From a virus (Duplodnaviria; Caudoviricetes), in IMG/VR virus record IMGVR_UViG_3300033069_001588, positions 37,450-101,449 of that record: a DNA stretch of 64,000 nucleotides; one strand, given 5' to 3'. The notes under the pieces are model-generated. The model was given only the letters and a program-made list of their open reading frames with translations. It did not search any database and was not told where the DNA came from. Numbering within the stretch: position 1 is the stretch's first letter; the number at the start of each line of letters is the position of its first letter. This document shows, piece by piece, positions 1,708 to 63,938 of the stretch. The position numbers were made by a program, and so were the translations under genes.

Positions 1708-2350
1708 TATTTTCTCCCATATGACGGACCATGTTTGCTCCATCTATAATATTTTGTTTAGCAGAATAAGGTCTTAAATTTTCCAATGACCAACACTTCT
1801 TGAAATTTTCATCTTCCATAGAAGCATATGGCAAATCTGAACGTGGAATAATGTGATCTATATTCCATTTCCACGTAGATGAATCATTGTCTTTCCATAT
1901 TCTATGATCATAAATTCCTTGATTTTCCCAATTCATCCAAGATTCAAATTGTTTTTCCAAATGTAACTTCAATTCTTGAATTGTATATGGTAAAAATTTA
2001 GATTTCGAATTACCATTTTTAGAAGTATTATATTTTTTAAGAGATTTATTTATGACTGATGATATAATGCCATTTAACCTAAATACAGGGTCTAACTTTC
2101 TTCTCTCATTAACATAACTTCGTCTATTTTTAGCAACTGATTCTTTATTATTTTTCCTATATTTTCTAAGGTATTCTTTTAGAGAATCAGTATGAACCGA
2201 ATCATACTGATTCTTGTATTTTTTAATGTGATCGGAATTATTTCTTCTCCATTGATCTTTATACTGCTTATTGCAAAATCGACACCAAGTTTGATTTTTC
2301 CCAAAATCAAACTCATTTTTATCAAGATTACAACGAGAACAGTATTTCAT
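1673..2350 (-). CDS. Free-standing HNH homing endonuclease with N-terminal CxxC-CxxC zinc finger
   Basis: WNIDHIIP...WSLENLRPYSAKQN HNH-type core; CSRC/CRFC; ATGA overlap with tubulin stop; paralog of 31849-32388. Confidence 0.8.
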   Translation of the reverse strand: MKYCSRCNLDKNEFDFGKNQTWCRFCNKQYKDQWRRNNSDHIKKYKNQYDSVHTDSLKEYLRKYRKNNKESVAKNRRSYVNERRKLDPVFRLNGIISSVINKSLKKYNTSKNGNSKSKFLPYTIQELKLHLEKQFESWMNWENQGIYDHRIWKDNDSSTWKWNIDHIIPRSDLPYASMEDENFKKCWSLENLRPYSAKQNIIDGANMVRHMGENNEDQRVNCPII

Positions 2351-16306: not shown

Positions 16307-19300
16307 AATGAATAAATACTCTACTATTGGCAGGTTTCAGTATTTTTATCAATTTCTCTAGAGCTTCTTTAGACTTTATACTACTATTAACTATACCTAA
16401 AGAATCTATTATATTTACTGAAAAATCAAACAAACCAGTTTCTCTGTTCTTTAATATAGCGAAATCAGTATTGATTGAAGATACTATATCAGAATTTAAT
16501 AAATACGTTGTAAATAAGTCTGCTGTTACAGGGAACACTACATCCAAATTGGAGGAGTAATTGACATCTATTGCCTCACCATACGGAGCATAGATAGGTC
16601 TAGACATATTGCTTATTCTCAAGTTATCCAACAAAGTGAATGTTGGGAACTGCTCATCAAATTGGGTTCCGATAAACAATTGATTAATGGAGTCTTTGAA
16701 TTTGATATTTCCCAGAGTGGCATAACCATCTCCTACTATAACAGATCCCATGATAGCTGGTGAAGTACCACAGATTAAATCAGTTCCAAATAGGACATTG
16801 TTATATTGGTAACCATCCAAGAACAATCTCATTTCATCAGTAGTTGGTCCGCTGTTTACGCGGTAACTAGCCTTTACTCTATGCCAAGTATTTCTAGACC
16901 AATACGTTGGTGCTCTTAATACATAGTCCTTGCCCGAAGCAGTAATAGCGAAGTTCATGTATCCCACTTCATCTTTGAAGATGGCTATGCGATCGCCTTG
17001 CAATCCCTTTGGCACATAGTTTACAGTCACATGTGACTTATGATAGGGCAGTTTTCTATTAAGTCTTACAACTTGTGTATTGATGTTTTGATTATTATTC
17101 TCTGTAGATTGATAAGTTACAACAACTGGTACATTGTTTGCTGGCAACAACCTTCCTAAATAGATAGTCTTCATATCTGTACCAATAGCGCCATCAACAA
17201 AATAATCCGTATTGGTTGGATCGTTGGCTATTTTAACAGTAATTACTTGTAGAATTGGATGAGAGACAACAACTGAGTTATTACCAACACTAGTGCTAGT
17301 TTCTTGTGTAGCATTTTGTGTATCAATTTCTATCTTTCCTCCGGCAAAATAATCTATACGGGGGTCTCCGCTCTTCAAATGAACGCTTAAAATTTGGTTA
17401 GCTGGCGCAGATAGCTTTAATGAAACACTGTTTGTACTTATTACATCTTCTGTTACGGCTCCGAAAGCATCAAAATAAAATCTCTTATGAGGATCATTGG
17501 ATGTATCAAACAATGGGCTCATCCAGAACTCTATGGTGCCTTCTTTTCTGGTATTCAAAATACCGTCATTGGACAAGATAATAGGCTCATCCAACAAAAC
17601 CAAACTATTTCCAAAATTCTCATTTACTACCAAAGAAGAATAGAAATGATTTTTGGTTGGAGTCGGGGAAACATAAAAGTCTGCTTGATTGCTGAATGGG
17701 AAGCTATCAAAACTAATCAACATCAAAGTATTAGAATCCTTAGTCAATGCTTTCAAGGAGTTAAAATCTTTGGTAATGGAGCGCTGATTAGTTGGAATGC
17801 TCTCTCCGATTCTAGTATCAGTTAGCATGACTGAGTATATTTTAACTTGATCCATCAATCCATGTAATTGTAGTTGACCATTAAAATCACTACCTACAAA
17901 TACCTTGGCGTTTATTGGATCCAAACTCATTCTCGTATAAGTGAAGTATTCAAACTCATAGAATCCCTTATTCAAGTAGTATGGTACTCCTGGCATATCT
18001 TTAATTTCGAAAGTAAAGAATCCATTTTGCAAACCGCTTCTATAAGCATTGACGTTGAGAATTTGATATGTTCCATTGCTAAAAACTGGAACGTCGCCAC
18101 CTAATGTTGGCTCTACAAATAAAGTCTTTCTATCTGAAGAAATACCAGTAATCAAATAGAAGCCCGCAGCATTTGATGGAGACGAAATGACTAAGTAGTT
18201 ATTTATGTCTAATGCGCTGAATAACTTATTATCATCTGTGACAGAATTAATGTCACTTTGATGCAAAGTATAACCATATCCAATTGGATAACTGAATCTA
18301 ACAACTGGTGCATAACCATCATTATTTTCTGCGTGAATAATAGAGTATTTTTCTTTCACTGTAACGGTACATGCTGCCCTGTTAAGCATCAATGGCTGAA
18401 CAACTACATTGACGAAATTAACAGAAAGATATTGATTTACAGAATCTAGTGTGCCATAATCATTGAAAGTAATTATTTCATTGGCTGGTCCACCAAGTGT
18501 AGTTCCATCAATAGTAACGTGAACGGCGGTTGAGAAATCTACATTGGTTCCAGCAATAGTGGCGCTTAATGTTCTGCCAGTTAAAGAAAGAGAAGGTTGA
18601 TCGACTACCAAATCAAAAGAAGTAAGTATGCCGCCTGATTCTGTTGAATTAGAAGTGCTGATAGAAGTATTTTGCAATATTACTTTTGTAATATCTACTT
18701 CATCCAATGAAATTGGTGCCGGCAATCTGGTCATCAAAATATTTTCAACGTCACTACTCCATACATAATAATTTCTCTTCACTCTTCTGTGATTTATTCC
18801 AAGTGTTCTTATAAGAATCAAATCATAAATAGTTACTTTATCAGAGATGGTTAGTATGTTATTGAAATTGACATCTTTAGATATGCTATAAGCCGGACTC
18901 AAAGCACGAACGCCTGGTATTTCCTGTTCTGTATCCACATTGTAGATAATGTATGGTGTATTGGTGATATTAACTGGCAATTCACCATTGATTATCAAGG
19001 CATTTCCAGATACTTGTAGAATAGTGTATACGTCAGTAACTGAGATGTCTTCTATCTTTAATAAATAACCTACTTGTACTTCTGCTGCTCCAAAATCTAA
19101 TGATGAAGAGGTGACAATATTAGAGCCAATGAAACCATTGATATCTGAACCAACTATAAATGAATGTATAGTTGACACCGCGATATTCGGAGATACATCA
19201 ATATCAGAAACAACGGTAAATTGAGTTCTGTTAATAGAGAATCTACCATTGGTCAATGTTTGTGGCATTGAGGAAGATAAAGTTAAATTCTGCCCGTCGA

Positions 19301-23433: not shown

Positions 23434-26400
23434 TTATCTAGTCTCTGTGTTGATAACTACATTATTAGGAGTTAGATATTCATCTTTTTGTGCCTGAATA
23501 CTCTGAACTTGACCTTGATTACCTGTCTTATTGAAATATAAGATTCTTGCTCTTGCAATACCATTAACAGCTTGTGCTACGTTAATCAACGTTGGTGCGT
23601 CAACAATTTGACCAAGTTTGGTAGTAGTCATAGCAGAGACTAACTGGTCTCTTAGGTTCTGCAATACAGTTGTTGAGGAAGAAAGGAAACTATCTGCAAT
23701 AACAACATTCATAGTCAAATCTGTTAGTACTTGTTTTGCTTGGCGCACCAACACATCCGCATTGATAGGTCTAGTATTTTCTATACTAAAAGTGACATCA
23801 GTGATGATTTTGTTGTAATTGTATCTGACTACAATCCTCTCATTTGGTTTAGGTCCAAGATAGTTATAGAAGACCTTGTATCTAGATCCCAAGCTGGGTT
23901 GTGTAAAGGAAGCTCCAGTGAATTTAGTAGACTGTGATGCCTTAAATCCGCTAGAAATATAGACCTTATTAATTGAAGAGAATTTCTTGTTAGTATATAA
24001 CGCACCGTTTCTAGTATAAGAAAGATTTTCAGAATCACCGTCAACAGTATAATAGAAGGTAATTCTAATTTTATCTCCTAACGTAGGTAGATTATGAGTA
24101 TTGGTATTCAGTGTATTGTTGCTAGTGCTTGGTAAGACTATATCTAGATTGTGAAGTGTCGGATCAGACAACAATTCATTAGCGTATAACAAATTATTCT
24201 GAATGGTAGTATTTTTTAAATCGTATGTAGTAAGTACTTGCAATACTTCGTCATTGCTAGCACTGGCTGTAATTACTTTTTCTAATTTGGTTATTCTAGC
24301 TACTTTTATGTTGTTAGGTATTGTCGTAGCACTTGAAATACTTAAAGCTTTTCTCAAAGCTTCAGAGATATTTAGCTTCAATCCAGTATTAGTAGCTGTA
24401 AAAACAATATCTTGAGCTTTGAATAAAGTAGTACCAGTGATAGTAATAACACCAGTGTTTACTACTTGATCAACTGTAATGCCGGTAATTTTGGTAGGAG
24501 TTTTTCTCAAGTTGTTAAAATTAAACAACATGACATAAACCTTATCATTTGTACTAGTAAAATTACTGACGGGCAAAAGTAATTTATTGTTGCTAACATC
24601 AATTACTCCGCCATAGTTCCAAACTTCTTTTCCATCTATCACTTTAATAATACAGATTTGATCGGCAGTAATCTTATCTACGATATTAGTGATAGTAAGA
24701 GTGTTTAATGTCAAATCATATCCAGTAATATCATATAATCCATTATTGAATACGTTAGCTGCTCCTGTGATGCGTACCTTTTTGTTTGTTAAATCCAACA
24801 GAGTAGAAAAAGATGTAGCGCTTGTTAAAGATGCTGTGGAACCATTATCTATTAACTGACCATCAGAGACTGTAAACAAAGCAATATCTGTATTTGGTTC
24901 TATTATAGAAAAGGTGACTGATGACTGAGTGGTAAACTTATTGATTGGTACGAAAAGTTTATTGGTGCCCGGGTCCACTTTCAAAGTATCTATTCTACTG
25001 CTGATTAAACTATTGTAGTAGCTGAATGGTTGGAATTTTCTCAAATCATAAGTATAGTAGATAACTAATACCTTATCTCCGACTGCTGGAGTGTGTACAC
25101 CATTCAAAACTAATTGATAATTTCCGGTGTTACTAACTATGACGCTACCCAAATTATCAGAATTCCATAGTTCTAAATTATCAGAAAGCCTAATTACTGA
25201 AACAATCTGTGATGGAGCTAATGAGAAATCGATAACCAAAGCAGTCAAGTCTATATAGAATTGATTGCTAGTGTTTTTTTGAACAGATTGGTTCTCTCTT
25301 CTTGACAAATTAACTGGACTAAAATTATTGAATCCAATATTGGAATTCAATATGAATCCGTTACCGATCCTGCTAATAGGCAATGCAGTGGTTGCCAAAG
25401 AAAATAGGTCAGAGATATTGGCAATGTAAGTGACTTTCAAAACAATCATATTGGCGGTAGTATTTACCAAAGAACTTGGAATAGTAATTTGGGTTCCGCT
25501 AGAACTACCGTTAATATTGGTGCCATGAAACACATCAGCACTATTTAAGATAACAGTTACATTATCACCATTTTGTGCCACCGTGTCGTTTGGTAGAATG
25601 ATAGTTGTGCTGTACACAATATTGATACCAGATACTACTGTAACATTGCTAAAACTTCCATTCCCTTGAGCCGTGGCGAACAATTCAGAATTATTATTCT
25701 TGAAAGTTATACTATCAACAGATTGCGTTGGAATTGCCAAATTGTTAATAGTAACGGATAACCTGTTGACAAAAATACCAGAAGTAATCTTAGAAACCAC
25801 CCCATTTATTTCCAAAAATGTTCTAGCATTCAATACCGTGCTAATTGGATGGCTGGATACACCAGTGAAAAATCCATTGGAAAGATCTCTTGTGAAAGAA
25901 ATTTTCTCATCATTTACTATTGATGCAAATCCCCAATCAATGCTATCGGTAACTGGTCTAGCATTTTGAGTATTGTACAAACCATCATAATCAGAGTACT
26001 GGTCATAGTTAACAATCCAACTATAATCTACCTGTAACTGATCGCTTGGAGAAGGCAAAGTGTTTCCAGAAATTTGTATTCTACCACTGGTATTAAAAGT
26101 TCCAGTATTATCCAAATTTTGATTTGTTACAATATACCTTTCACCTGTATGAACATTGAATACTCTTGTGACGTTAGTTGACGGGGTATGTAATAATTGA
26201 ATAATTGATCTATCAGAGGTAACAATACTGTTTTCATTGGTGATAGAGATATTTTGTTGTACTTGTGGTATGGTTAAAACATCTGTAAAAGTAACAGCAT
26301 CCTGTCCATTTAGTTGACCCTTAATAATATCTTCGCTGAATTTAATTTGATTATTAATCCAAACAAATGTATCAAATCCCCATGGGCTGCCGCCATAAAT

Positions 26401-27522
26401 ACCAGTATCTTTTACTAAATCATAATTTCCAGATACTCTACCTAATGAATCAACAGATTTTGGTAAGAAATTAGATCCACTACTTGAACCTGTAACTTCG
26501 AGAATTCCATTAATTGGTTGTATGGGTAGAATGCCATTAGCAAGATTATCAATTCTTTTTCTATTGATGGTTTTATTAGTATCAGTCGAAATTTGCCCAA
26601 GAACAACATTATTCTTAGAACTAGTTGGATCATTGCTATTACTTTTATCTATATAAATAAAACTATCTTTATTCTCTATTAAATTAGTTCCCAAAACTAC
26701 AACATCTACTTTGCCGCCCGAGCCCTCTGAAACAATAGTTCTAGAACCATCGCTATTTATTTTAACAATGGTACCATCTCTAGTCATTAAGGGATCGCCG
26801 GGCTCGACAACATAAGCATCAGATACTCCCGTGGTACTCAAAGCTACGTTCAAATATCCTAAAGAAGTTCCTACACTAGATCCACTAAATGAAGCTAAAA
26901 CACGATTTCTAAAAGATGCATCATTTTCTTGATCAGTTCCACCAGAAAATGGATTAACGTTTGTAACATTAGACACTCCTGGAGCTGTAGATCTAGAAAG
27001 AGAATAAGTTCCAATATTACCAGCAGAGCCAGCAGAAGTAGCTCTTAAAGTAACTTGTACGGCATATTGATCAGAAATACCAGCAGTAGCCAATTGATCT
27101 GCAAACTTACTAGCTACTGATTTGTAAAAATTGGCATTAGCTGGAGCTATCGAAACACCAGCAGTAACAGAATATGAAATACCATTGTTTGCAATAACAG
27201 TATCTCCTTGATTGATATTGATTGGGGCAGAAATAGAAGCAAAAGTTAACAAAGCCGTGCCTGTAGACGGAGTTGCTTGCCTTCTAACAATACCAAAATT
27301 CTTAGATAATTTGTCTAAATCAGATCCGACTACTAATCTTATGGATTGTTTACTAGACACATCACCAATTTGATCATAAAGTAGTGAAATTTGACTGGCA
27401 GGAGCTTCAATAAACAAATCTCTAGCAACTGTACCTTGTTTGGTATCCAAATCAGGTTGTGCCAGTCTAAAAAAGTCAACTAGACTTTGTATGATTTCAT
27501 TTGCAGAACGTATCGTGACCAT
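23434..27522 (-). CDS. Baseplate J / T4 gp6-like wedge protein with large central insertion
   Basis: GTVARDLFIEAPA, LDKLSKNFGIVRRQATPSTG, AGSAGNIG, FSGGTDQENDASFRNR; C-terminal LINVAQAVNGI. Confidence 0.88.
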   Translation of the reverse strand: MVTIRSANEIIQSLVDFFRLAQPDLDTKQGTVARDLFIEAPASQISLLYDQIGDVSSKQSIRLVVGSDLDKLSKNFGIVRRQATPSTGTALLTFASISAPININQGDTVIANNGISYSVTAGVSIAPANANFYKSVASKFADQLATAGISDQYAVQVTLRATSAGSAGNIGTYSLSRSTAPGVSNVTNVNPFSGGTDQENDASFRNRVLASFSGSSVGTSLGYLNVALSTTGVSDAYVVEPGDPLMTRDGTIVKINSDGSRTIVSEGSGGKVDVVVLGTNLIENKDSFIYIDKSNSNDPTSSKNNVVLGQISTDTNKTINRKRIDNLANGILPIQPINGILEVTGSSSGSNFLPKSVDSLGRVSGNYDLVKDTGIYGGSPWGFDTFVWINNQIKFSEDIIKGQLNGQDAVTFTDVLTIPQVQQNISITNENSIVTSDRSIIQLLHTPSTNVTRVFNVHTGERYIVTNQNLDNTGTFNTSGRIQISGNTLPSPSDQLQVDYSWIVNYDQYSDYDGLYNTQNARPVTDSIDWGFASIVNDEKISFTRDLSNGFFTGVSSHPISTVLNARTFLEINGVVSKITSGIFVNRLSVTINNLAIPTQSVDSITFKNNNSELFATAQGNGSFSNVTVVSGINIVYSTTIILPNDTVAQNGDNVTVILNSADVFHGTNINGSSSGTQITIPSSLVNTTANMIVLKVTYIANISDLFSLATTALPISRIGNGFILNSNIGFNNFSPVNLSRRENQSVQKNTSNQFYIDLTALVIDFSLAPSQIVSVIRLSDNLELWNSDNLGSVIVSNTGNYQLVLNGVHTPAVGDKVLVIYYTYDLRKFQPFSYYNSLISSRIDTLKVDPGTNKLFVPINKFTTQSSVTFSIIEPNTDIALFTVSDGQLIDNGSTASLTSATSFSTLLDLTNKKVRITGAANVFNNGLYDITGYDLTLNTLTITNIVDKITADQICIIKVIDGKEVWNYGGVIDVSNNKLLLPVSNFTSTNDKVYVMLFNFNNLRKTPTKITGITVDQVVNTGVITITGTTLFKAQDIVFTATNTGLKLNISEALRKALSISSATTIPNNIKVARITKLEKVITASASNDEVLQVLTTYDLKNTTIQNNLLYANELLSDPTLHNLDIVLPSTSNNTLNTNTHNLPTLGDKIRITFYYTVDGDSENLSYTRNGALYTNKKFSSINKVYISSGFKASQSTKFTGASFTQPSLGSRYKVFYNYLGPKPNERIVVRYNYNKIITDVTFSIENTRPINADVLVRQAKQVLTDLTMNVVIADSFLSSSTTVLQNLRDQLVSAMTTTKLGQIVDAPTLINVAQAVNGIARARILYFNKTGNQGQVQSIQAQKDEYLTPNNVVINTETR

Positions 27523-29690: not shown

Positions 29691-31852
29691 TAGGAGCCAC
29701 CCATATCGCCCAAGTCCACCGCATCTCTTCTTGATTGGGTACCATCTGATTCATCACCGATTGGGGTAGAGATAACAGCAGGTGTAAATACAAATTGATA
29801 ATCTACAACTTGCAGTGTGTGTGTCAAAGCAGTTGTGTCATTTGTACAAAACGTGTTATTATCAAAAGAGATCATTAATTGTCCCGCCCCAGCATCTTTA
29901 CTAGTTAAATTAGCCGTAAAAGATTGATATCCATCGTACGTGAAGTTTGAGATATCACCAAAAGTAATATGCCCTTTAATTCTATCTGCTAAGTTAGCGG
30001 CAATATCGGCTGGAATTCCATTAGTTAATGAAATACCATTATTTTCATTGATATCAACTTTAACTACAATAGGCTTACTAGTAAATTGAGTTTGAGGAAC
30101 TGCTTTAAATGAAGATTTACAAGGATCATTTCCTATACCAATAATAGAAGAAAGAGCGCCAGTCGTATCATCTCTTAGTTTTTGCAAACATAATAAAGCT
30201 GTAGTTTGAAATTCTGCCACGCCTTGTGGTGTTAAGTTAGCTCTCAAAGCTGATAAAGCAGTTGATAAACATTGTTGAGTAGCATCAGGGTTTGGAAAAT
30301 TTGGCTCATTGAAAACATCTTTTAATAGTTGTGTTTTCAAAGCCACATCACCTGCTAAAGCATTATTAATAAAACCTTTAGCTAAAGAAAGATCGGGCAT
30401 ACAACCAGCAGTTACCAATTCTTTTGATAATAAGGTAGCCATTCCAGGTTTAAATGTATACTCAATGTTACTGAATAAATGCGCGTCACTTGGAGAATAA
30501 CTTGGACTAGCAGAAATATTATCTTCTTTATGGAAAAAGTTATTAAGAGTAGCTTGCTTTTTAATTGGAGTGATACTATCTGTATCAAATCCTTTTAACT
30601 TAGTTTTACCATCGTCTTCATAACCTTTACCACCTGCTAAGTTTAATACGCCATTTGATGAAATTTCAATAAGATTATTGTATGTATTAACGATTTGAGT
30701 TGGAATTGTTAATACAATACAATCTTTAAATCTAACATATCTAGCTACTCCAATACGTCCCCAATCTGCTGGATTATAGAATAATCTTAAATCTACTGTA
30801 TAAGCAGCTTGTTTAGCAGGAGTTTTTTCAGAGAAAAAAGAATCTGTTGGGAAAAAAATTGTTTTAAAGAATGGATCTGGACCATCATCTGTAGGTAATA
30901 CATCAAATGCATTAACAATATTCATAAATTGTTGAATTATTGTTTGCTGAGGATCGTATAATTGCCACACTTCATTTCTTAGTTGATAACTAAAAAAGAT
31001 TGGATCTGCTGGAGGTGGTAATGGAATTTCCACATTTGTTTTAACCCCAACTCCTCTTAAATATTGTAACTGACCTGTAAAATTAGTATATGGAGCATTT
31101 TTAATGAAAGCCGGACATACATCAGATGTGCAACAATCACTATCATCACATGGCGGAATAGCAAAAGCCATCCCTAAAATATCTTTGATAACTTGAATAA
31201 TAATATTGAAAATAGCTAATAATACAAATAAATTCTGGAATACACATAACATGGCTCCCAATTTCTTTGCAATTGCTAAAACAGAATTGATATTAGCTTC
31301 TTGAAACGCACTTATCAACATGAAAATATTTCTCAAAATAGCAGAAATAAACTTTAGAATTTGGGCAATAATATATTCAATCAATGCTATCAAAAGTAAT
31401 AACAAAGATATGATCATAATTATGATTGCAAAAATTGGAAATAATAACAAAAAAGCTGGAATGCAATCTGTAAATAGTTTAATAATTGCGGGTATTAATT
31501 TGAATGGATTAGCAATGGCACAAATAACCTCAATAATACAAACAATAATTTTCAAAATTGGTAAAAAGAATTTATATAGCATCAAAAATGGCATGAATTG
31601 ATCAAGCAATTTCATAATAGCATCAAAAATATCTTTACCGAAATTCAAACTTAATGTTGGTAGTAGCGCGCCGGGCGGAATTAATAATTGCAATGCGTTA
31701 AGAATACCTAATAAATCTTCTGGAAATCCCGCTGGAAATGGATTAATATTTGGCAAATCCAAAGCAAAAGGAACACCAAATCCAGGAATGGAAGGACCAG
31801 ACGGACCATCAGGAGGAGAAATACTAACATCGCTAGGACTACAGGGGCTCAT
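29690..31852 (-). CDS. Virion protein with long hydrophobic helical region and Cys clusters
   Basis: Pro-rich N-terminus; hydrophobic residues ~85-230; PPCDDSDCCTSDVCP; located between spike and gp25. Confidence 0.55.
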   Translation of the reverse strand: MSPCSPSDVSISPPDGPSGPSIPGFGVPFALDLPNINPFPAGFPEDLLGILNALQLLIPPGALLPTLSLNFGKDIFDAIMKLLDQFMPFLMLYKFFLPILKIIVCIIEVICAIANPFKLIPAIIKLFTDCIPAFLLLFPIFAIIIMIISLLLLLIALIEYIIAQILKFISAILRNIFMLISAFQEANINSVLAIAKKLGAMLCVFQNLFVLLAIFNIIIQVIKDILGMAFAIPPCDDSDCCTSDVCPAFIKNAPYTNFTGQLQYLRGVGVKTNVEIPLPPPADPIFFSYQLRNEVWQLYDPQQTIIQQFMNIVNAFDVLPTDDGPDPFFKTIFFPTDSFFSEKTPAKQAAYTVDLRLFYNPADWGRIGVARYVRFKDCIVLTIPTQIVNTYNNLIEISSNGVLNLAGGKGYEDDGKTKLKGFDTDSITPIKKQATLNNFFHKEDNISASPSYSPSDAHLFSNIEYTFKPGMATLLSKELVTAGCMPDLSLAKGFINNALAGDVALKTQLLKDVFNEPNFPNPDATQQCLSTALSALRANLTPQGVAEFQTTALLCLQKLRDDTTGALSSIIGIGNDPCKSSFKAVPQTQFTSKPIVVKVDINENNGISLTNGIPADIAANLADRIKGHITFGDISNFTYDGYQSFTANLTSKDAGAGQLMISFDNNTFCTNDTTALTHTLQVVDYQFVFTPAVISTPIGDESDGTQSRRDAVDLGDMGGS

Positions 31853-32388
31853 CTATTACCTTTAATAAAGTTTTCTTTAGCTGATAAAGGTCTTAAATTT
31901 TCAAGTGACCAACACTTCTTAAAATTTTCATCTTCCATATTAGTATATAACAATTTAGATTGTGGAATTATATGATCGATTTGCCATGTCCATGTTGATG
32001 AGTCATTATCATCCCAATTATTGATTCTATAGTGTCCATAATTATCCCAAGACATCCATGATTCAAATTGACGCCCTATATGTTCTTTCAAATCACATAT
32101 AGAATATCCCAAATATTCTAAAATGCTTTGTCCACTTTTTGAAGAATTAGATACTTTTAGTATATATCTAATTCTTCTGGATATATTACTTTTTAATTTA
32201 AAAATAGGATCGACGAGTCGTTTTTCTTTGGCTCTTACTTTTCTCTTTTCTTTTATGACGTTTTTATTATCATGATGATATTTGTTTGCTCGTTTCTTTT
32301 CATTTTCTATATTTTTATGATATCTTTCTCTGCTTTCTTTAAGTAATCTTTCTCTGTTCTTTTGATAATATCTTTGTTGAGGTGTCAT
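31849..32388 (-). CDS. Free-standing HNH homing endonuclease
   Basis: WQIDHIIP...WSLENLRPLSAKENFIKGN; paralog of 1673-2350. Confidence 0.8.
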   Translation of the reverse strand: MTPQQRYYQKNRERLLKESRERYHKNIENEKKRANKYHHDNKNVIKEKRKVRAKEKRLVDPIFKLKSNISRRIRYILKVSNSSKSGQSILEYLGYSICDLKEHIGRQFESWMSWDNYGHYRINNWDDNDSSTWTWQIDHIIPQSKLLYTNMEDENFKKCWSLENLRPLSAKENFIKGNR

Positions 32389-32407
32389 AATAAATAATTA
32401 TATATCA

Positions 32408-46538: not shown

Positions 46539-49301
46539 TTATATTTGTCCTACACTTACCTTAATGTAAATGAAGTTGACTGGATAGCTTGGTTGTACTC
46601 TTACAGAAATATTCCATTGTGTTGGATCTACATCATCTTGTACTACGTTTAGATCGGCGTAGTTAGTGATTAATCCTTGAGATACCAAAGAGTTTAACAA
46701 GATAACTGCGCGAGTATTTAATATTGCTCCAGTGTTTTTATCTTGTGGCAAACCAATGTAACCAGCGAAGCCAGCTCTTAACGTCTTAGCAACTCTATCT
46801 CTAATGAAAACAATAGAAATTTCTTGTTCCTCAACGAATCCACTTTGAGATGTAGTTAGTCCCCAAATGACTCTACCTCCACCTGCAACTGGCTGCAAAG
46901 TGCAAACACCAGCAGCCGCCAATTGTTCAAGTGTGGCTGTAGAAAGTGTTTTGTTTCTTAGGATTGTAAATCCAGATAATACTTTGTTTGTTAGTGGATT
47001 TTCAATTCTTACATCTGCTGATTCATATCCAGCAGCAGCGGCGGCAAGATAGAATCCATCAATCAAGACATTATCTGAACTTGCTTGTACCACAATCTGA
47101 TCAGGATAAAAATATACACATCTATAAGTATTACCAAATGCATTTGATACCGAATAATTTGCAAGATCTTCTATGTTTCCAGCCAGAACATCGGTAACAG
47201 TCTCTCCTTGAATTCCTTCTAGAACACCAATATCTTCTACGGCGGCTGGCTTGGCTCCGGTCAAATTCTCAGGTAACAATCCATTGATTGCTCCAATAAA
47301 TAATACTCTTTCTTTCTTATTACGAATATTACTCATAGACTTACAATGTGCGAGTGCATTTTGGAAAATAACAGAGATTGTTTGTTTTGGTAATGGTACT
47401 AAAATATCACATTCTACTACCTCTAAAGAAGCTAACGCATTAATCCATCCAGCATCGTAAAAAGATGCTTCCTTGGCATCAACTAATGTAACTCTCAATC
47501 CAAATCCAATTGGCACTACATTATGATTAATAACTACATAATTGCTAACATTACTTGAATCTAATACTTCATATCTCATACCAGTTTCATTAACAAGCGC
47601 CTTGCTAATTGTAATAGTATTGGTAAGACTATCGTATCCAATAATATCGTATAAACCATTATTATCGTCCGATCCATTAATTTGTAATCTGCGGGTAAGT
47701 AGATTAGTAATTGTACTAAAATCTACATCTGAAGAGTTTAAAGTTGCCGTCGCACTATCAACTAATGCAACCAAAGTACCATCAACACCTGAGGCGCCAC
47801 TAATTGGTAGTCCAGTAGAAACATCAATAACTTGGAAAGTTGCCGAAGATTCTGTAACAAAATCTGAGAAAGCCGCACGAGTTACATACAATTGACCGCC
47901 ACTAACCGCATCAATAGTGTAAGAGCCAATATTAGATACGTTAACGGCATCAATAATTTTTAAAGTTTTTCCAACATGAGAAGAATCGAATACAATAGAT
48001 GCATTAAATACGCCTTTGTCACTGAAAGCAGGATTTCTACCAACATAACCATCTTCCCCGGTTGCCATAACTGCTAAGCTTTGTACAACAGTATAGAAAT
48101 ATGAGAATCCGCCGGGCGCAGAAGTATCATCAAAGACGAACTGATTGGTAGTTGGATTGCCCGAAGTATCCAAGGTATAGAAGTCCAATTTATTAGGAAG
48201 AATCTGAGTTTCTACATTAGTAGAATTATTCTTAATAAAAAAATGGATATTAGAGTTAAAATCTGGAGTTATACCCAATGGTAGTGGGAAGATAAAATCA
48301 TCTTCATTTAGCGAAGCAGAATTTACAGCAGCCTCTAAAACGTAAGATTTTCTTCTTGGCATTGGCGGTGCGGCTTGAACTGTGATTAGGGCTGGCGCAT
48401 TGTTAGCATAAGCTAATTGAGCACCCAAAGCTAAATTGTTAGTCAAACTTGGGAATCCATGTCTAACAACTACATCTCCCATACCTTGAGTTAAAATAGG
48501 ATCATTCAAGAAAAGAGATGGAATATAGTTAGCAGTTAAAGAATCACTTCTAACTAATACTCCACTGTTAATTTTAACAATGAAAGCATCACCTTCTCTA
48601 AATGGAGAAGTAACTACAGACATAACTTGAGTTTCTGCAATAGAGAATCTCAAAATACCATTGCTTACAACTTGATCGTTGGCGACCCAAATAATTGGAT
48701 TACCATTTGCATCTAGTTTAGAACCAGAGATAGATCCAATGGCTAAAAACTTAGCAGTTCCAGCAACTGGTTGATTTAAAACATTTCTTTGAACAGACAC
48801 GCATCTAATAGTCCAGGTCTCTGGCGGAGCGTTAACGTCAACCAAAGTTAAATTACTAACTGTTCCTAAACCAACGTTAGTAGATAATGGAACATAGAAT
48901 GCACCGCCTTGGTCCACAAGATGTGCTTTTTGTAATTCAATTTTGCCAGAAGAAATATCAATTCTGTAATCATAACTATTACTAAATGAATTTGAATCAA
49001 TAAGTGACTCCAAACCAACTAATGAAACACCATTCTTAAATAATGTTGTTCTATTAGAGATTAATGGAAAGTTTGATAATTGGAAATGTCTACCGTCAGC
49101 GCCTGATATAGATGAGTAGGAAGAATTCAAACCGTCACTACCACCACCATTTGCTTGTGATACTAACGTTTCATCAGTTGAACCTTCACCTATTATAGCA
49201 GCAACACGTGACCCTCCAGGAATTGACGCCCCACGTGATGCAGTAATTACGTCAGTTGTTACGCCTGGTATTAAACCGGCTCCTCCAGGTTGATTTGCCA
49301 T
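46539..49301 (-). CDS. Contractile tail sheath protein with inserted domains
   Basis: N-terminal IPGVTT; ALAHCKSMS, LTNKVLSGF, LAAAGVCTL, EISIVFIRDRV, VQPSYPVNFIYI; AGAGGAG RBS. Confidence 0.9.
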   Translation of the reverse strand: MANQPGGAGLIPGVTTDVITASRGASIPGGSRVAAIIGEGSTDETLVSQANGGGSDGLNSSYSSISGADGRHFQLSNFPLISNRTTLFKNGVSLVGLESLIDSNSFSNSYDYRIDISSGKIELQKAHLVDQGGAFYVPLSTNVGLGTVSNLTLVDVNAPPETWTIRCVSVQRNVLNQPVAGTAKFLAIGSISGSKLDANGNPIIWVANDQVVSNGILRFSIAETQVMSVVTSPFREGDAFIVKINSGVLVRSDSLTANYIPSLFLNDPILTQGMGDVVVRHGFPSLTNNLALGAQLAYANNAPALITVQAAPPMPRRKSYVLEAAVNSASLNEDDFIFPLPLGITPDFNSNIHFFIKNNSTNVETQILPNKLDFYTLDTSGNPTTNQFVFDDTSAPGGFSYFYTVVQSLAVMATGEDGYVGRNPAFSDKGVFNASIVFDSSHVGKTLKIIDAVNVSNIGSYTIDAVSGGQLYVTRAAFSDFVTESSATFQVIDVSTGLPISGASGVDGTLVALVDSATATLNSSDVDFSTITNLLTRRLQINGSDDNNGLYDIIGYDSLTNTITISKALVNETGMRYEVLDSSNVSNYVVINHNVVPIGFGLRVTLVDAKEASFYDAGWINALASLEVVECDILVPLPKQTISVIFQNALAHCKSMSNIRNKKERVLFIGAINGLLPENLTGAKPAAVEDIGVLEGIQGETVTDVLAGNIEDLANYSVSNAFGNTYRCVYFYPDQIVVQASSDNVLIDGFYLAAAAAGYESADVRIENPLTNKVLSGFTILRNKTLSTATLEQLAAAGVCTLQPVAGGGRVIWGLTTSQSGFVEEQEISIVFIRDRVAKTLRAGFAGYIGLPQDKNTGAILNTRAVILLNSLVSQGLITNYADLNVVQDDVDPTQWNISVRVQPSYPVNFIYIKVSVGQI

Positions 49302-58067: not shown

Positions 58068-59396
58068 TTATCCTTGTGACATTGCTAGTTGTATAATTAC
58101 TAACCAGTTAACAGTATTAGTTCCAGAAAATCCTGTGTAAACTTGTAAATTATTTCCAGATGTAGTAATAGTTGGAATTGTCCAACTTGCGGCAGCTCCA
58201 GTAGTTGTTCTAGCATCTGCATTAGTGACACTGCCCATTGCTATTGGACTTCCAGTTGTTCTTAAGTAACCCATACTTAAGTTAAATTCGGCGCCATCAG
58301 CAGCGCTTGTAGCTTTACCCGTAAAGATAACATCAATTTTAATTGAAGTATTATCTGGTATAGCAAAAGAAAATGCCAAAGCAGCCGCTCCAACAGAAGA
58401 AGTTACATATGAACGATATGTATAAGTTTGCTGTCCGGCAGATCCCCAGATACTAGGATTTGGGATAGACCCGACTGAAAAATTATCTCCATCCGCTTGT
58501 TTTACCCATAGCTGACCGCCAGATGAATATACAATTGTTCCATTCAATGGATTTCCAATTGTTGGTGGGGTTACGGTATCTCTAACATACATTACAAGAT
58601 CACCTGTATTGGCAGGCATATCCAAATTTGTTAATGGTCCATTATGTAACAATGACAATACTCTGCGATTAGCTGCTATTTCTGTTGCTTCCAACATAGT
58701 AGTGCCGGCAGAATCCAAAGCTAATGTTACTCCGCCTTTTAATCCTCCAGAACCTGGACTACCACCAGTAATAATTGCATCTCCTCCATTTTTGGAGGAA
58801 CCTGAAGCGCTCTGTGCTCTTACAGTAAAATCTGCTCCATGATTTAATACTGTTACCGATTGAGAAATAACAGGAATTATTCCATTGATCCAAGTTAATC
58901 CGCTTGAAGATACTCTAGTAGATCCTAAAACGCCAGTTAATCCAATAACTTGCTGTATAGCGTTAGTACCAGCTAAATCCCCACTAGCACTAAATGCATT
59001 AACAGCCGGTGATGGCATCCAAGAAGAGGATCCTCCATCCCATGTCAAAACGTCTCCGCTACTTGGAGGCAATGTACTAACTGATCTGCCTTGTATTTTA
59101 GTTACTAATACATTGGTAGCAGTTCCACCAATATCTCCATTTAATTGAATTATACCCTTACTAACAGTAGTGGCATCATCAATAACTGGAGGTGTTACAA
59201 TAGTAGTTAATCTTTCAATAGCTTCTTGTACATTTGAAACTACTTGAGACTCAATAGTTATCAATGGTGATAAATCTATTTGATCAGCTTTGTGTCTAAA
59301 ATTAGCACCATCAACGTGATTTTGAAAATCAAATCTATCGGTGGCTAATCTGCCAACATCTTTTTTATAATTTGGTACGGGAGGTATATTAGTCAT
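58068..59396 (-). CDS. Fibre/whisker-like virion protein
   Basis: DDATTVSKGIIQLNGDIGGT fibre repeat; GDVLTWDG; Gly-rich segments. Confidence 0.65.
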   Translation of the reverse strand: MTNIPPVPNYKKDVGRLATDRFDFQNHVDGANFRHKADQIDLSPLITIESQVVSNVQEAIERLTTIVTPPVIDDATTVSKGIIQLNGDIGGTATNVLVTKIQGRSVSTLPPSSGDVLTWDGGSSSWMPSPAVNAFSASGDLAGTNAIQQVIGLTGVLGSTRVSSSGLTWINGIIPVISQSVTVLNHGADFTVRAQSASGSSKNGGDAIITGGSPGSGGLKGGVTLALDSAGTTMLEATEIAANRRVLSLLHNGPLTNLDMPANTGDLVMYVRDTVTPPTIGNPLNGTIVYSSGGQLWVKQADGDNFSVGSIPNPSIWGSAGQQTYTYRSYVTSSVGAAALAFSFAIPDNTSIKIDVIFTGKATSAADGAEFNLSMGYLRTTGSPIAMGSVTNADARTTTGAAASWTIPTITTSGNNLQVYTGFSGTNTVNWLVIIQLAMSQG

Positions 59397-59895
59397 TATG
59401 ACCTTCCATTTTGTATTGTTTAACTAGCTGTAAAATTTTTTTGCTCAATATTTTTATCTTCTTATCATCTTTATCTATTTGCGCTCTAGCAAATTGCTGT
59501 AAAACTTTCATTTGAGCAGGTTGAAAAAACCATTGTACCAACGCATCATCTATGTGTACATTAAAATGTTCTTGCAATAACATTTTAATATTTTTTGTCA
59601 TTTTTTCTCTGTAATCTCTAACTATTTTATCTATTTGTTCTTGTTGAGACAATGGTGGATTTTTTTGTAAATGTTCCTGACGCTTTCTTTCCTGCTCTTC
59701 AAAAAGCTTATTTTTTATTAATTCTTCCTGTTTTTGTTTTTCAGTGATTCTTTTAATATACGCTTTATACATGGGATCATTGCGATTTTTTCTAAAACGT
59801 TCATTCATTAATTCGCGCTCAGCTTTTTCTTCTTCACTTTCTGCCAAGGATAAAAAACTATCAATATTCTTAATAAGCTCATTTATTTTTTTCAT
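59389..59895 (-). CDS. Charged coiled-coil protein with shared N-terminal leader
   Basis: MKKINELIKNIDSFLSLA then a K/E/Q-rich helix. Confidence 0.65.
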   Translation of the reverse strand: MKKINELIKNIDSFLSLAESEEEKAERELMNERFRKNRNDPMYKAYIKRITEKQKQEELIKNKLFEEQERKRQEHLQKNPPLSQQEQIDKIVRDYREKMTKNIKMLLQEHFNVHIDDALVQWFFQPAQMKVLQQFARAQIDKDDKKIKILSKKILQLVKQYKMEGHND

Positions 59896-60652
59896 AGTTA
59901 CCCTGATGATTATATATCCTTATTATCTTAGCTACAGAATTATATTTTAAATTAAATTGTATTGCTAACTGTTTTTTAGTATACAAGCCTGTCAAATATA
60001 ATTTGACTATTTCATTTTTAATTTCAATAGGAATACGAAAAGAACGGTCTTGATTTTTAGCTGCTTCACTATTTCTTTTTTTATGTTCTTCTGTTAGAGA
60101 GCCTCGTAATCTCATGGATTGGAAATTGGACATTTTTTTTCTTGTTTCATCACTAACAGTTTTTCCAAATCTTCCGTTGTTTTCACCAGAATTTGCCACG
60201 GAAATTTTTTGTCTAACTTCTTTAGTAATAATTTTTCCTTTATGGCTTTCTGAGATCTTTTTATTATGTTCATCAGTATGTTTTCTACCTAGCATTTTTA
60301 ATCTTCTTTTTTCTTTACTTTCTTCAGATACATTAATCGCGCCATCACCACCCGAAGTCAAGTTGTATCCATAATTTTTATCTTGTGTTTTTAACATAGA
60401 TATCCAAAAAATCTCTTTTTCATTAACATTAATTTCATTACATACTTCAATAGTTTCCAAGAGAAAATTCTCTTTTCCATATTTTTTTATAGCTTTGTGG
60501 ATAATTTGAAAATGATTATCTGATTCTGAAAATGTTTCAGAGATCTTAACGTGACGGGCAAATCTAGAAATAACGTTTTTAGTTTTTCCAATATACATTT
60601 TACCATTAACTTTATTTGTGATTTTATATATATAATGTAGGGTCATATTCAT
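59879..60652 (-). CDS. GIY-YIG homing endonuclease with NUMOD3-type repeats and HTH
   Basis: HYIYKITNKVNGKMYIGKT; GYNLTSGGDG; start likely ATG 60652 or 60646. Confidence 0.88.
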   Translation of the reverse strand: MNMTLHYIYKITNKVNGKMYIGKTKNVISRFARHVKISETFSESDNHFQIIHKAIKKYGKENFLLETIEVCNEINVNEKEIFWISMLKTQDKNYGYNLTSGGDGAINVSEESKEKRRLKMLGRKHTDEHNKKISESHKGKIITKEVRQKISVANSGENNGRFGKTVSDETRKKMSNFQSMRLRGSLTEEHKKRNSEAAKNQDRSFRIPIEIKNEIVKLYLTGLYTKKQLAIQFNLKYNSVAKIIRIYNHQGNYEKNK

Positions 60653-60671
60653 ATAGTAAAATATTATTAGA

Positions 60672-62249
60672 TCACGGTAATATAATTGTATGATTGTGCC
60701 CAAGCACCTTTTGCACTACACCCCCAATTATTGGATGATTATGACCTTGATTAACGGCAGTTGTTTGATTGATTTGATTAACAGAGATTATCTTTTCGTT
60801 TATTACAATTTCGTGAACATGAGGAGGAATTCCAGGTACAAAACCAACGGTAGTTGATAATTTTGATGGAAACATTGATGTATTTCTAAACACTCTGATT
60901 TGATAAGCTGGATCAAACTTTCTAATTCTCATAACTCTAAATAATTGACCACCTTGTTGATTCAAAATAGTATTGTTTCTAGTTACAGAAATGACTTCAT
61001 ATCTAAATTCTTCATTATCATCAATATCAAATAAAATTATGATATCTCTAGTTTTGATCGTAGGAACTGTTAAAGTCCATAAATTCAATGGAAATTCTGA
61101 TTCCATTCCAGCTTCATACATTTTAGTTTGTTCATCTGTTGGGGATGGTCTAACCATAATTCTGCCATCTGATTGTCTTGGATTAAAATATTGTTCGTAT
61201 CCAAAGACAAACTTGGTACCATAGCATAGCGGACATCTGTCATCAGGATATTCGCTACTAGCCAAGTAACAAGAACAAGTAATACCAGTTTGAACTCTTT
61301 TAATCAATACGGCTGGTCTACCAGTAACAGATAACTCAACTTCTTGTCTTTGATCATTATGATCTTGCAAATTGAATCCTCTCAAAATATTGTAGTTACC
61401 ATAACCGTCTATGCAGCCCATTTCTCCACCAATATAACTTCCTACACAGGTACCATTAAGTAAAAGTACCGGATCGGTTCTGTGATATCCAGCATAATCG
61501 TACATTGGAAAATTTACATTAGCGGCATCGGAAGCTCCAAGATCAGTAGATAACAAATCTTTAGTTACTTGATGATAGCCATCAATTAAAGTATATGGAT
61601 AATTAGGGTATTCAAATCTAGATTGACATACAAAAATTCTATCAAATAGAGAAGATTCATCAATGGTAAATTGAATAACTGTCGGATCCCAAAATGTGAT
61701 GCCATCAAAACCAGCCGTAGTATGTGATCTAGCAATTGAGTTATTGTAGCCCCTTTGTAATAGATCTGTCAATATCAAATTCATATTGACGACATCTATA
61801 GAAGAATATTGTATTAATTCTGCACCAACTTTAATTACACCGCTTGGAGAAAATCCACTCACATCCAATAATGGAATAACCAAGTCAGTTGCAGAAATAT
61901 CTTGTCTTAAAATGCTGAAAGGGTATACTCTCAAATTATCATAAGCAACGGGCAATTGATTCAAATCGAATGCTAATGGATCATATTCAACTGGTCTAAC
62001 GCTAAAGAAATATTCTTGACCGGGAACTAAATCAATAATATTGGCTTCTAAAGTTCCATCTATGGAAACATATTTAACACCATCAGTGAAAACATTTTCT
62101 TTAATGGTGGAATAATAAAGATGATATGCTATTTGATTGGTTTTTATTGTTGGATATGCTTGGAACCATTTCATGTTGATGGTGTACCCGTCGCCCAAGC
62201 TTTGGATGTGATCTAATCCGGCACGTACAGGATTAAGATAATATGGCAT
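60672..62249 (-). CDS. Neck/head-closure-like protein with N-terminal FN3-like domain, CxC-CxxC zinc motif and His-rich tail
   Basis: KWFQ...YHLYY...DLVPGQEYFFSVR; TCSC...RCPLCYGT; PHVH...GHNH...GHNH; GGAG RBS before ATG 62249. Confidence 0.55.
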   Translation of the reverse strand: MPYYLNPVRAGLDHIQSLGDGYTINMKWFQAYPTIKTNQIAYHLYYSTIKENVFTDGVKYVSIDGTLEANIIDLVPGQEYFFSVRPVEYDPLAFDLNQLPVAYDNLRVYPFSILRQDISATDLVIPLLDVSGFSPSGVIKVGAELIQYSSIDVVNMNLILTDLLQRGYNNSIARSHTTAGFDGITFWDPTVIQFTIDESSLFDRIFVCQSRFEYPNYPYTLIDGYHQVTKDLLSTDLGASDAANVNFPMYDYAGYHRTDPVLLLNGTCVGSYIGGEMGCIDGYGNYNILRGFNLQDHNDQRQEVELSVTGRPAVLIKRVQTGITCSCYLASSEYPDDRCPLCYGTKFVFGYEQYFNPRQSDGRIMVRPSPTDEQTKMYEAGMESEFPLNLWTLTVPTIKTRDIIILFDIDDNEEFRYEVISVTRNNTILNQQGGQLFRVMRIRKFDPAYQIRVFRNTSMFPSKLSTTVGFVPGIPPHVHEIVINEKIISVNQINQTTAVNQGHNHPIIGGVVQKVLGHNHTIILP

Positions 62250-62985
62250 TGGGTTCTCCATTTTTAGTAATTATGTTTTCCAATTCTATGTATTTTTCAT
62301 ATTTTCTATCAAGGCATAATATATTACTGTCTCCATACAAAAATTTCAATATTGAATGTACATTATTATTTCCAGTATATTGAAGAGAGCCTATACCACT
62401 ATCTTGACCAATGATTTTGGTTTCAGTAGGAATTTCACAATTTTTGAACAGTACATCATGAAATGAAGTTAAAAACTCTTTTGTTCCACGAAGATGTAAT
62501 CGAGCTTGCGGCGTTTTTCTTAATTTACCATTGCTATACTTTTTATCAAATCCTATACTTCCATCACCATCAAAATATCCTGCTAAAAAACTATTAATGT
62601 ATTTATGATTCTTAATATGATCTGGCAAGTTGTATGTTAATGATTTATTTGAATGTATTCCAAACTTTTTCAAATCTTCTATATATTCTGGAGAATACAA
62701 TAATAGAGTATAACTTATACTATCATTATACTTAAGGTTTCTTTTACTATTTTTTATTACTCTTTTGTACAGTTTATGATTTGATTTTATCATATTTTGT
62801 ATTTTTTGAAGATGTGATTTATCATTTTCTTTTAATGATATTCCAATGTCATTATGCTTTTTGTTTCGAGAATCTATTTTCTCATAGATCCATCCATCAG
62901 CAGCTATAAATCCTGCTAAATAAAATGATTCACAAGTCTCTTCTTTGAAAAAATCTTTGTTGAATGTATGTTTAGTATATCCCAT
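62233..62985 (-). CDS. Two-motif LAGLIDADG homing endonuclease
   Basis: FYLAGFIAADGWI and FLAGYFDGDGSI; NKSL motif. Confidence 0.88.
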   Translation of the reverse strand: MGYTKHTFNKDFFKEETCESFYLAGFIAADGWIYEKIDSRNKKHNDIGISLKENDKSHLQKIQNMIKSNHKLYKRVIKNSKRNLKYNDSISYTLLLYSPEYIEDLKKFGIHSNKSLTYNLPDHIKNHKYINSFLAGYFDGDGSIGFDKKYSNGKLRKTPQARLHLRGTKEFLTSFHDVLFKNCEIPTETKIIGQDSGIGSLQYTGNNNVHSILKFLYGDSNILCLDRKYEKYIELENIITKNGEPNAILS

Positions 62986-63002
62986 ATTACAATACTATGA
63001 TA

Positions 63003-63938
63003 TTACCATTTTTCCATTTCTTTCCATAATAATTTGGCGGCTAATTTCCATTTATGTAGAGCATTGTCTTTTAAGTATTTAAAAAAATCTATTGGATTTG
63101 TAGATATGAATTTAGAAAAATGTAAAATTTTTCTCTTATCATTTTGTGATATTTGATAATTTGATGATAGATCTTTTAAGATATTTTTATACAATGTATT
63201 AGGTAATCCCAAAGCAGCTTTACATAATTCTATTTTATTATCTTGATAAATAGTACGAGATTTAATAATCCTTTCTAACAACATAAAATTATGTCTTAAA
63301 GAAGGATAAAATTCTGTATCTTGCTTATCATGTGGCAATGTAACCTGCCAAAACATATCTTCTGGCTCTCTATATTTTTTAGGCGGCAATCCAGATACAT
63401 CTGGATCTTTTTTACCCTCATTAATAAATCTATTTAAAGAATCTTGAATATAATGTGTTAATTCATGAGCAATGACTTCTTTTAACCAATGCACTATTTG
63501 TTTAAAACCATCAATGGAATCAACGTCTGGCAATATTACTTCCATTGAACGTGTAGAAGAATCATATGTGCCGCCATGTTTTACAGTCCAACTATTTGTT
63601 CTAGTATTAACAGTAATGTCATCTAAAATAAATCCAGTTTTATCTTTTATATTTTTCACTATTTCATCATATTTGGATGACTTAAAATATCTCAATTGAT
63701 ATAGAGGAATATGAAATATCCTATATCCAGCATTAGGATGTTGCCCATTATCTTTTCCTAAATATTGTTTGGCATAATTTATCAATTGTTCATCTTGTGT
63801 ATTTGCAATAACATTTTTTGCAAATAAAGAAAACACAAATTCTGATATTTGATTAACTGAACTTTCAGGAAGCTGAACTAATCCCGCCAGTTTTTCGAAA
63901 TATTCGCATCTACTTAAAATTTCACTTATTTTATCCAT
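63003..63938 (-). CDS. Zincin-like metallopeptidase with shared N-terminal leader
   Basis: GGTYD...VIAHELTHYIQ (HEXXH), downstream E in DTEFYP; ATG 63938 starts MDKISEILSRCEYFEKLA. Confidence 0.65.
   Translation of the reverse strand: MDKISEILSRCEYFEKLAGLVQLPESSVNQISEFVFSLFAKNVIANTQDEQLINYAKQYLGKDNGQHPNAGYRIFHIPLYQLRYFKSSKYDEIVKNIKDKTGFILDDITVNTRTNSWTVKHGGTYDSSTRSMEVILPDVDSIDGFKQIVHWLKEVIAHELTHYIQDSLNRFINEGKKDPDVSGLPPKKYREPEDMFWQVTLPHDKQDTEFYPSLRHNFMLLERIIKSRTIYQDNKIELCKAALGLPNTLYKNILKDLSSNYQISQNDKRKILHFSKFISTNPIDFFKYLKDNALHKWKLAAKLLWKEMEKW

Follow-up and report, generated by a model that had tools for sequence, protein, structure and literature searches.

Why do two otherwise unrelated proteins of one viral genome begin with closely similar stretches of 18 residues? 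The genes in question lie on 64,000 nucleotides of DNA (positions 37,450 to 101,449 of the IMG/VR record IMGVR_UViG_3300033069_001588; hereafter the window), which form the final 64 kb of a 101,449-bp viral contig. One encodes orf168 (59389..59895, minus strand), an orphan helical protein rich in Lys and Glu, and the other a 311-amino-acid (aa) zincin-like HExxH protein (63003..63938, minus strand), which its profile matches and invariant residues assign to an uncharacterised viral family. The initial annotation took the common start for a modular leader that is cut after a terminal Leu-Ala and sorts its cargo, including a protease effector, into the phage head for injection. T4 loads anti-defence proteins into its head, and the particles of extracellular contractile injection systems (eCIS) load toxins, via shared terminal tags. 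We find that the helix motif is real and recurs at the N-termini of otherwise unrelated proteins of this phage clade. As our best explanation, tentatively held, the two 'leaders' would be instances of an N-terminal helix by which accessory proteins dock on a common partner, possibly to be loaded into the virion.

Recurrence of the N-terminal helix motif

The two starts, MKKINELIKNIDSFLSLA in orf168 (codons 1-18, 59842..59895, minus) and MDKISEILSRCEYFEKLA in the HExxH protein (codons 1-18, 63885..63938, minus), align without gaps, with M1, K3, I4, E6, F14, L17 and A18 identical (7 of 18 positions), positions 7-8 hydrophobic and position 12 acidic in both. These features are just as first described, as is the zincin motif of the HExxH protein, HELTH at residues 158-162; the bodies are unrelated, as BLASTP finds nothing further in common between the two proteins. 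In orf168 the helix is followed by an acidic stretch, ESEEEK. Among the 5050 pairs formed by the 18-residue N-termini of the 101 open reading frames (ORFs) called on the 101-kb contig, this pair ranks second, with a BLOSUM62 score of 28. The N-termini were shuffled in two ways and the trials with a best pair of at least 28 counted; since 11% of the shuffled sets match the score, the pair does not reach significance by itself. The observation nevertheless holds at its core once the test is a family profile instead of one pair.

The profile comprises 15 columns and was derived from 60 outside homologs of the zincin-like protein, the window's own protein being excluded; column-shuffled profiles (300) and protein-internal windows served as controls, with a threshold of 10 bits. 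On the contig, 3 of 103 N-termini reach this threshold, where column-shuffled profiles give 0.03; among internal windows, 1 of 1134 does so. The complete 446-kb genome of a relative (G001), which lacks both window genes, gives 6 of 680 N-termini, against 0.22 for shuffled profiles and 1 of 4360 internal windows. The observed N-terminal count was reached by none of the 300 shuffles. Nearly all N-terminal matches begin at residue 4-6, and five of the eight matches of at least 12 bits in G001 begin at residue 4-8, a range that makes up 2.6% of the scanned positions (a hand-calculated binomial gives about 6e-7). The motif is approximately h-h-x-[KR]-x-[DEN]-x-F-[EYFL]-[KRS]-h-A. Thus, of the modular leader originally proposed, the recurrence of a helix in fixed register across the clade is retained, but the two genes in which it was noticed are not general, neither being present in five complete relatives. 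The strict regular expression suggested for the leader matches both proteins but no other in the contig, and none in the complete 446-kb relative.

After the zincin-like protein, the best six-frame matches in the contig are two small genes, designated A and B, followed by orf168 (15.6 bits; shuffle P 2e-4, or about 0.02 corrected for 103 N-termini). The shuffle P is at most 1.5e-4 for genes A, B and C and for a 716-aa protein. In a comparison by hhalign, columns 4-18 of the gene-B family align with columns 3-17 of the zincin family, and nothing else does (P 0.004). A 161-aa ORF (contig 17386-17871) does not match the profile. The 119-aa ORF at 32408, to which a weaker copy of the leader had been attributed, has GMEKLA at residues 22-27 but falls outside the profile (P 0.3). 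The 5' coding and upstream DNA of orf168, of the zincin gene and of the other carriers is not similar, so the similarity among the carriers is one of protein sequence.

Genes A and B are adjacent and lie at the very beginning of the contig, which the window does not cover (G000 contig 1-264, minus); the family is also found at L037:15702-16385, L056 and L057, with its N-terminal module on diverged bodies. Gene A begins MVDTKSILRKANLFEKIA, and gene B, which is cut by the contig end, begins MVDTKALLKKAELFERLA. Gene B encodes a protein with a peptidoglycan-binding domain, which is shared by several bodies of the family. The first 32 residues of the family are nearly invariant (..KAELFEKLALYGDRKSFLxxLAQ), and the remainder diverges. 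In the complete relative G002 the module heads a 238-aa body, and a 287-aa protein of G005 has two tandem copies of it. A degenerate DNA pattern for the module matched two contigs only, both of the same clade. Gene C (PHROG 4301, about 216 aa; L037:14207-14857 and orthologs) has a conserved N-terminal helix, M-N-x-x-[KR]-h-h-[KR]-h-h-x-h-F-Y-S-L-A, beyond which comes an acidic linker whose length varies, a start that can be likened to the ...SLAESEEEK of orf168.

Some observations on these genes and on the profile may be recorded here. Gene C has an invariant SSGSSRIVY...IIK.AKN.KG and a C-terminal LIDAGLT, which by eye recall the glycine loop, catalytic lysine and DFG-like motif of kinases; the model of gene C made with AlphaFold2 (AF2) is too poor for a structure search, with a predicted local distance difference test (pLDDT) score of 52.5. 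At L037:11157-12305, in G001, a 382-aa ORF resembles by eye a class-1 peptide chain release factor with a GGQ-type motif (..SGAGGQNVNKVESAV..), and it adjoins a family of small zinc-ribbon proteins whose C-terminal ends are similar. The C-terminal tail of a tubulin-like protein (window 2347-3714, minus; ..KIAAKSSAFGKLMGG..) scores 10.2 bits on the helix profile, here and in G001. Several small ORFs at L037:19204-19765 and at G001 152895-153377 end in ...LKAFW, ...MKCFW or ...EKFEKLKAFV; one of these tails scores 9.8 bits on the N-terminal profile, and the two terminal tags may be related helices.

The zincin-like family and its setting

The frame of the HExxH protein is open up to the contig end (63998); the start at the ATG at 63938 has the support of P0001, the closest homolog, of the family alignment and of GAGAG 5 nt upstream. 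Two homologs are close to the protein (60% and 36-40% identity), and a profile search yields 220 representative clusters at E<=1e-3. Its look-alike clusters in the Atlas are more than 90% viral. No Pfam family matches it, and the match to PHROG 38692 is weak. H158, E159, H162, Q165, E209 and F210 are invariant in 22 full-length homologs, as are F14, A18, G19 and P24 at the N-terminus, and about 60 stand-alone homologs start M-x(3-5)-h-L-x-K-x-D-x-F-Y-K-x-A-G-h-h-x-x-P-P. The alignment indicates that the 'leader' of this protein is the conserved first helix of a large viral zincin-like family.

HELTH (63453..63467, minus) is the putative zinc-binding motif. In an AF2 model (pLDDT 86.8 overall) it lies within a long helix, 142-172, after strands 70-76, 107-114, 123-126 and 131-136, so that by prediction the HExxH is in an active-site helix that follows a beta-sheet, as in zincins; invariant E209 is a candidate third zinc ligand. 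Helix 2-17 has a pLDDT below 50 and is therefore not confidently packed onto the body. A Foldseek search with the model gave no clear match (best E 0.44, with lethal factor and selecase among the weak rows), VIA-align gave Z of at most 6 over C-terminal helices only, and a sequence search of the PDB revealed no relative.

The 311-type domain is also a component of proteins 1000-3400 aa long, among them P0057 (3381 aa), P0122, P0016 (three copies) and P0022 (two copies). Its fusion partners include a poly(A) polymerase head, topoisomerase IB, 2H phosphoesterase and M23 peptidase. Some stand-alone members begin exactly at the K-x-A-G...P-P segment, and because deep internal copies retain only this segment, the helix is an optional front piece of the domain. 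In P0013, P0044 and P0119 the helix is kept, after an N-terminal domain of about 150 residues. In P0013 and P0119 this domain is homologous to a 173-aa HExxH protein of G001 (L003:5253-5774; HEITHWLQ...NPFEQEG), with 45-46% identity and E values of 7e-39 and 4e-44, and the C-terminal tail of the latter aligns with the start of their linker helix. The head domain of P0119 scores 24 bits against Pfam eCIS_core (PF13699, formerly DUF4157), for which the cut-off is 22; it is the only fused relative above the cut-off, and the 173-aa protein itself is below it. The helix in these fused relatives is an internal linker after a small HExxH domain that resembles DUF4157/eCIS_core.

The gene for the DUF4157-like protein, which is also present in G002-G005, is found directly upstream of the conserved gene p529 in all five complete relatives. 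A Logan contig (L002) has a DUF4157-like gene upstream of its zincin homolog. At L002:5474-6574, a 366-aa ORF joins an N-terminal part with IIDGHHRF, ParB-like by eye and without a match in Pfam, to a DUF4157-like small HExxH domain. The zincin family is of the effector type: some members have DUF4157/eCIS_core-like heads, and others lie within giant proteins that combine several enzymes. Delivery with the virion is thereby plausible. To this extent the protease effector for injection that was first suggested survives, but nothing ties it to the head.

In the window, the anchor of the locus is p529 (60672..62261, minus), whose product is a conserved protein of the virion or tail module. Its relatives occur on 28 viral loci, at 51-94% identity, and because several of these are complete genomes of 430-480 kb, the contig is a piece of a jumbo phage of about 450 kb. 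The completeness given by CheckV is 24%, and the G+C content is about 33%. No cultured relative was matched by megablast and tblastn searches with the region, p529, the zincin-like protein and P0081 against 50,697 phage records, and a search of viral contigs seeded with P0081 gave no further contigs with a zincin homolog. The minus-strand block from about 11 to 64 kb of the window is a contractile-tail module, marked by a tail sheath (46539-49301) that shares its strand and operon-like block with a baseplate-wedge (J-like) protein (23434..27522, minus; PHROG 6 baseplate wedge, 1.7e-36, residues 2-274).

Both genes under study adjoin homing endonucleases. A LAGLIDADG enzyme (62233..62985, minus; Pfam LAGLIDADG_3 1.3e-9, PHROG 4645 4.8e-36) is encoded between the zincin gene and p529. 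A GIY-YIG/NUMOD3 enzyme (59879..60703, minus; Pfam NUMOD3 1.3e-13, GIY-YIG 3.7e-6, PHROG 314 4e-42) is encoded between p529 and p442, a conserved gene for a tail-fibre-like protein (58068..59396, minus; weak match to the Pfam DUF5907 repeat). The start of orf168 overlaps the end of the GIY-YIG endonuclease gene, and its stop overlaps the start of p442. In 28 relatives p442 comes directly after p529, and in most relatives this endonuclease is not at the p529/p442 site; orf168 and the endonuclease are thus an insertion between the two. L002 has an endonuclease at this position without orf168. No homolog of orf168 other than itself was found among 5.8e9 proteins, and tblastn was empty in 29 related loci and in the five complete relatives. 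The Atlas model of orf168 is helical and has no usable structural match. The zincin-like protein was likewise not found in the five complete relatives. The zincin gene and orf168 are accessory genes, inserted next to homing endonucleases within the contractile-tail module.

P0001 is encoded on a 1.5-kb contig, and the adjoining ORF (L062:1207-1470) contains FYGDFWHGNP, which by eye is Vsr/endonuclease-like, so that a zincin gene again stands beside a nuclease-type mobile gene. The sequence GATATATAAT is present some 13-23 nt upstream of the ATG of orf168 (59908-59918) and of a 179-aa ORF at 31849-32388 (32396-32406), and TGATATAT and GATATATA are enriched 14-15-fold upstream of ORFs in G001. 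The three, GATATATAAT, TGATATAT and GATATATA, may represent a promoter for inserted or accessory genes; the GATATATA-type motif is enriched yet rare, and says nothing about timing.

A proposed docking helix and its rivals

A docking tag is probable because the helix motif recurs at the start of several unrelated proteins. It would be a short amphipathic N-terminal helix for protein-protein docking, probably not a propeptide, and would stay on the protein. Changing accessory proteins (the zincin-like protein, orf168, the peptidoglycan-binding protein and the PHROG 4301 protein) would be recruited by it to one shared partner, for which the DUF4157-like protein of the contractile-tail module is the best candidate. 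By analogy with eCIS cargo, whose loading depends on N-terminal sequences (bioRxiv 10.64898/2026.05.27.728243), binding to this protein would put the accessory proteins in or on the virion for delivery, a placement that we infer. The setting, a tail module with a sheath and a baseplate wedge, agrees with this. The element is modular: the gene-B module stands on different bodies and is duplicated in tandem in G005, the helix of gene C is joined to a variable linker, and that of the zincin-like protein is detached in the model (pLDDT <50). A more far-reaching proposal is that a clade-wide system exists in which the 15-residue helix directs the same accessory proteins to the DUF4157-like protein; the virion would transport them, and they would enter the host by injection together with the DNA. 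The C-terminal '...LKAFW' helices may also belong to this system, which we consider unlikely.

Several points weigh against the docking helix. The pair formed by orf168 and the zincin-like protein is, alone, within chance (P 0.11), and no physical or co-evolutionary link of the helix to the DUF4157-like protein or to any partner was found. The hhalign probability for the gene-B and zincin families is 8%. The contig end cuts off the region upstream of the zincin gene, where a DUF4157-like neighbour would be expected from the relatives. Genes A, B and C are in a non-structural region, beside release-factor-like and dUTPase-like genes. The N-terminus of the baseplate wedge (23434..27522) scores 12.1 bits on the helix profile and is probably a look-alike, not a member, and because at least one match is probably of this kind, part of the enrichment could reflect a general tendency to N-terminal amphipathic helices. 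Finally, the known loading sequences of eCIS are disordered and longer, not 15-residue helices, and in AlgoCIS a disordered N-terminal sequence is necessary for the loading of cargo, whereas loading does not require DUF4157 (bioRxiv 10.64898/2026.05.27.728243).

The rival that survives best is coincidence, in which orf168 simply starts with a generic amphipathic helix made of residues favoured in AT-rich start regions (K, N, I, E, L, F) and no function is shared. This is possible, and a serious rival for orf168 because orf168 lacks homologs in which conservation of the helix could be tested. It agrees with the 11% of shuffles that reach the similarity of the pair, with the failure of the strict motif to match anything else, with the score of the baseplate J protein on the profile, and with a small ORF at 1492-1743 whose start, MKIKELIAQLSEF, resembles that of orf168 at least equally by eye. 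It does not account for the profile-based P of 2e-4 for orf168, nor for the 3 and 6 matches observed where composition-keeping column shuffles give 0.03 and 0.22, and internal windows, which are rich in amphipathic helices, seldom score (1/1134 and 1/4360). If the motif is only a generic helix, the finding shrinks to two orphan accessory genes beside homing endonucleases. The ORF at 1492-1743 (83 aa, minus) probably begins at an internal Met13 (MKIKELIAQLSEF...), and its residues 13-40 match PHROGs 5861, 22847 and 20907 from position 1.

The mechanism of the initial annotation, a capsid-targeting sequence (CTS), would have the 18 residues bind the scaffolding core, load the protein into the prohead and be removed by the prohead protease after ...LA, as in the internal proteins and Alt of T4. 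An N-terminal motif on unrelated, fast-changing accessory proteins is indeed the pattern of the T-even internal proteins, in which only the capsid targeting sequence is conserved (PMC3012670). The carriers include enzyme-like and small acidic proteins, recalling Alt, the internal proteins and gp67/68. In addition, the motif keeps a fixed distance from Met1, and the helix is detached in the AF2 model. The T4 prohead protease follows an L/I-x-E rule, which is fitted by L-A-E in orf168 and by L-F-E in genes A and B.

A comparison of the carriers shows no conserved prohead-protease site after the motif, however, and the residue following LA varies (G, E, T, V, I). In the zincin-like protein it is a glycine (L-A-G), and the helix runs unbroken into the invariant A-G...P-P turn, which is continuous with the fold. 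The same helix is internal in the fused relatives, which does not support a need for a free N-terminus, and the conserved module of gene B reaches 14 residues past the supposed cut. Both genes lie in the tail module and not in a head module, and neither is present in the five complete relatives. Peptidase_S77 and a Gp23-type capsid protein gave no match in the contig (G000), G001 and G003, in a search that had no working positive control. We reject the cleaved leader because there is no shared cleavage site, the A-G of the zincin-like protein is part of its fold, the helix is internal in fusions and nothing ties the genes to the head; capsid targeting as a whole is decidedly unlikely. Another parallel, the double-glycine bacteriocin leader, was dropped, as the conserved pair is A-G and is kept in internal copies of the domain.

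Least probable, and very much so, is the capture of a zincin-type first helix by orf168 through recombination that is driven by homing endonucleases and moves the 5' ends of genes, with no selection for a tag: gene-start shuffling does occur at the zincin locus, yet the distant carriers are left unexplained by it. In its favour, each of the two window genes borders a homing endonuclease, P0001 stands beside an endonuclease-like ORF, and in L002 the helix of the zincin homolog P0002 is preceded by a duplicate of the ~14 residues (YYLNPVRAGLD) with which the next gene begins. Against this, the other carriers are far from the zincin/orf168 locus, the DNA of the carriers is dissimilar as noted above, and the two copies of the L002 peptide differ in their codons (for Arg, AGA in one and CGT in the other), which points to an old duplication or to one that is maintained at the protein level. 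The segments concerned are L002:7443-7490 and L002:8388-8430; P0002 starts MVYYLNPVRAGLDHVQ, a copy of the p525 N-terminus MYYLNPVRAGLDAVR, and p529 of the window starts alike.

Comparison with known systems

With the CTS of T4 (IPI-III and Alt), the helix motif shares a short length and its place at the N-terminus of unrelated, rapidly exchanged accessory proteins of a large myovirus. It differs in having no conserved protease site behind it, in being able to stand inside a protein and in the location of the two genes, which is the tail module; it measures about 15 residues, and one family has it within a module of 32 residues. The search described above, which had no working positive control, revealed neither a head protease nor a capsid gene of the T4 type.

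A second parallel is provided by the polyvalent (multi-enzyme) proteins of phages and conjugative elements, reportedly treated by Iyer, Burroughs and Aravind in 2017. The 311-type domain is embedded in giant multi-enzyme proteins of this kind, whereas the phage of the window encodes a stand-alone 311-aa protein with its own N-terminal helix.

The third is with eCIS. DUF4157 is a core eCIS domain of unknown role, found N-terminal to or beside eCIS toxins (PMC8213781). In cargo of the DUF4157/eCIS_core ('PVC-metallopeptidase') type, a small HExxH domain is fused N-terminal to or stands beside a variable effector, in a contractile-tail cluster. The P0013 and P0119 fusions and the neighbour arrangement of L002 have this layout; it is not visible in the contig studied here, although both of its genes do lie within a contractile tail-like cluster (sheath 46539-49301, wedge 23434-27522). 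Unlike a bacterial eCIS operon, the present genome is that of a virulent-type phage of about 450 kb, and the loading sequences of AlgoCIS are N-terminal, upstream of DUF4157, whereas the helix here is short and in the fusions lies downstream of the DUF4157-like domain. The clade-wide helix-tag system, if true, would be a case of a phage using eCIS-style cargo loading, and would link a phage tail module to the DUF4157 cargo logic of eCIS. It would also offer a first way into the function of the HExxH family, a large viral one that is uncharacterised. Beside the tags of T4 and eCIS, such a third, helix-based tag would supply a sequence rule by which the delivered or co-assembled accessory proteins of an uncultured clade with genomes of 430-480 kb could be listed.

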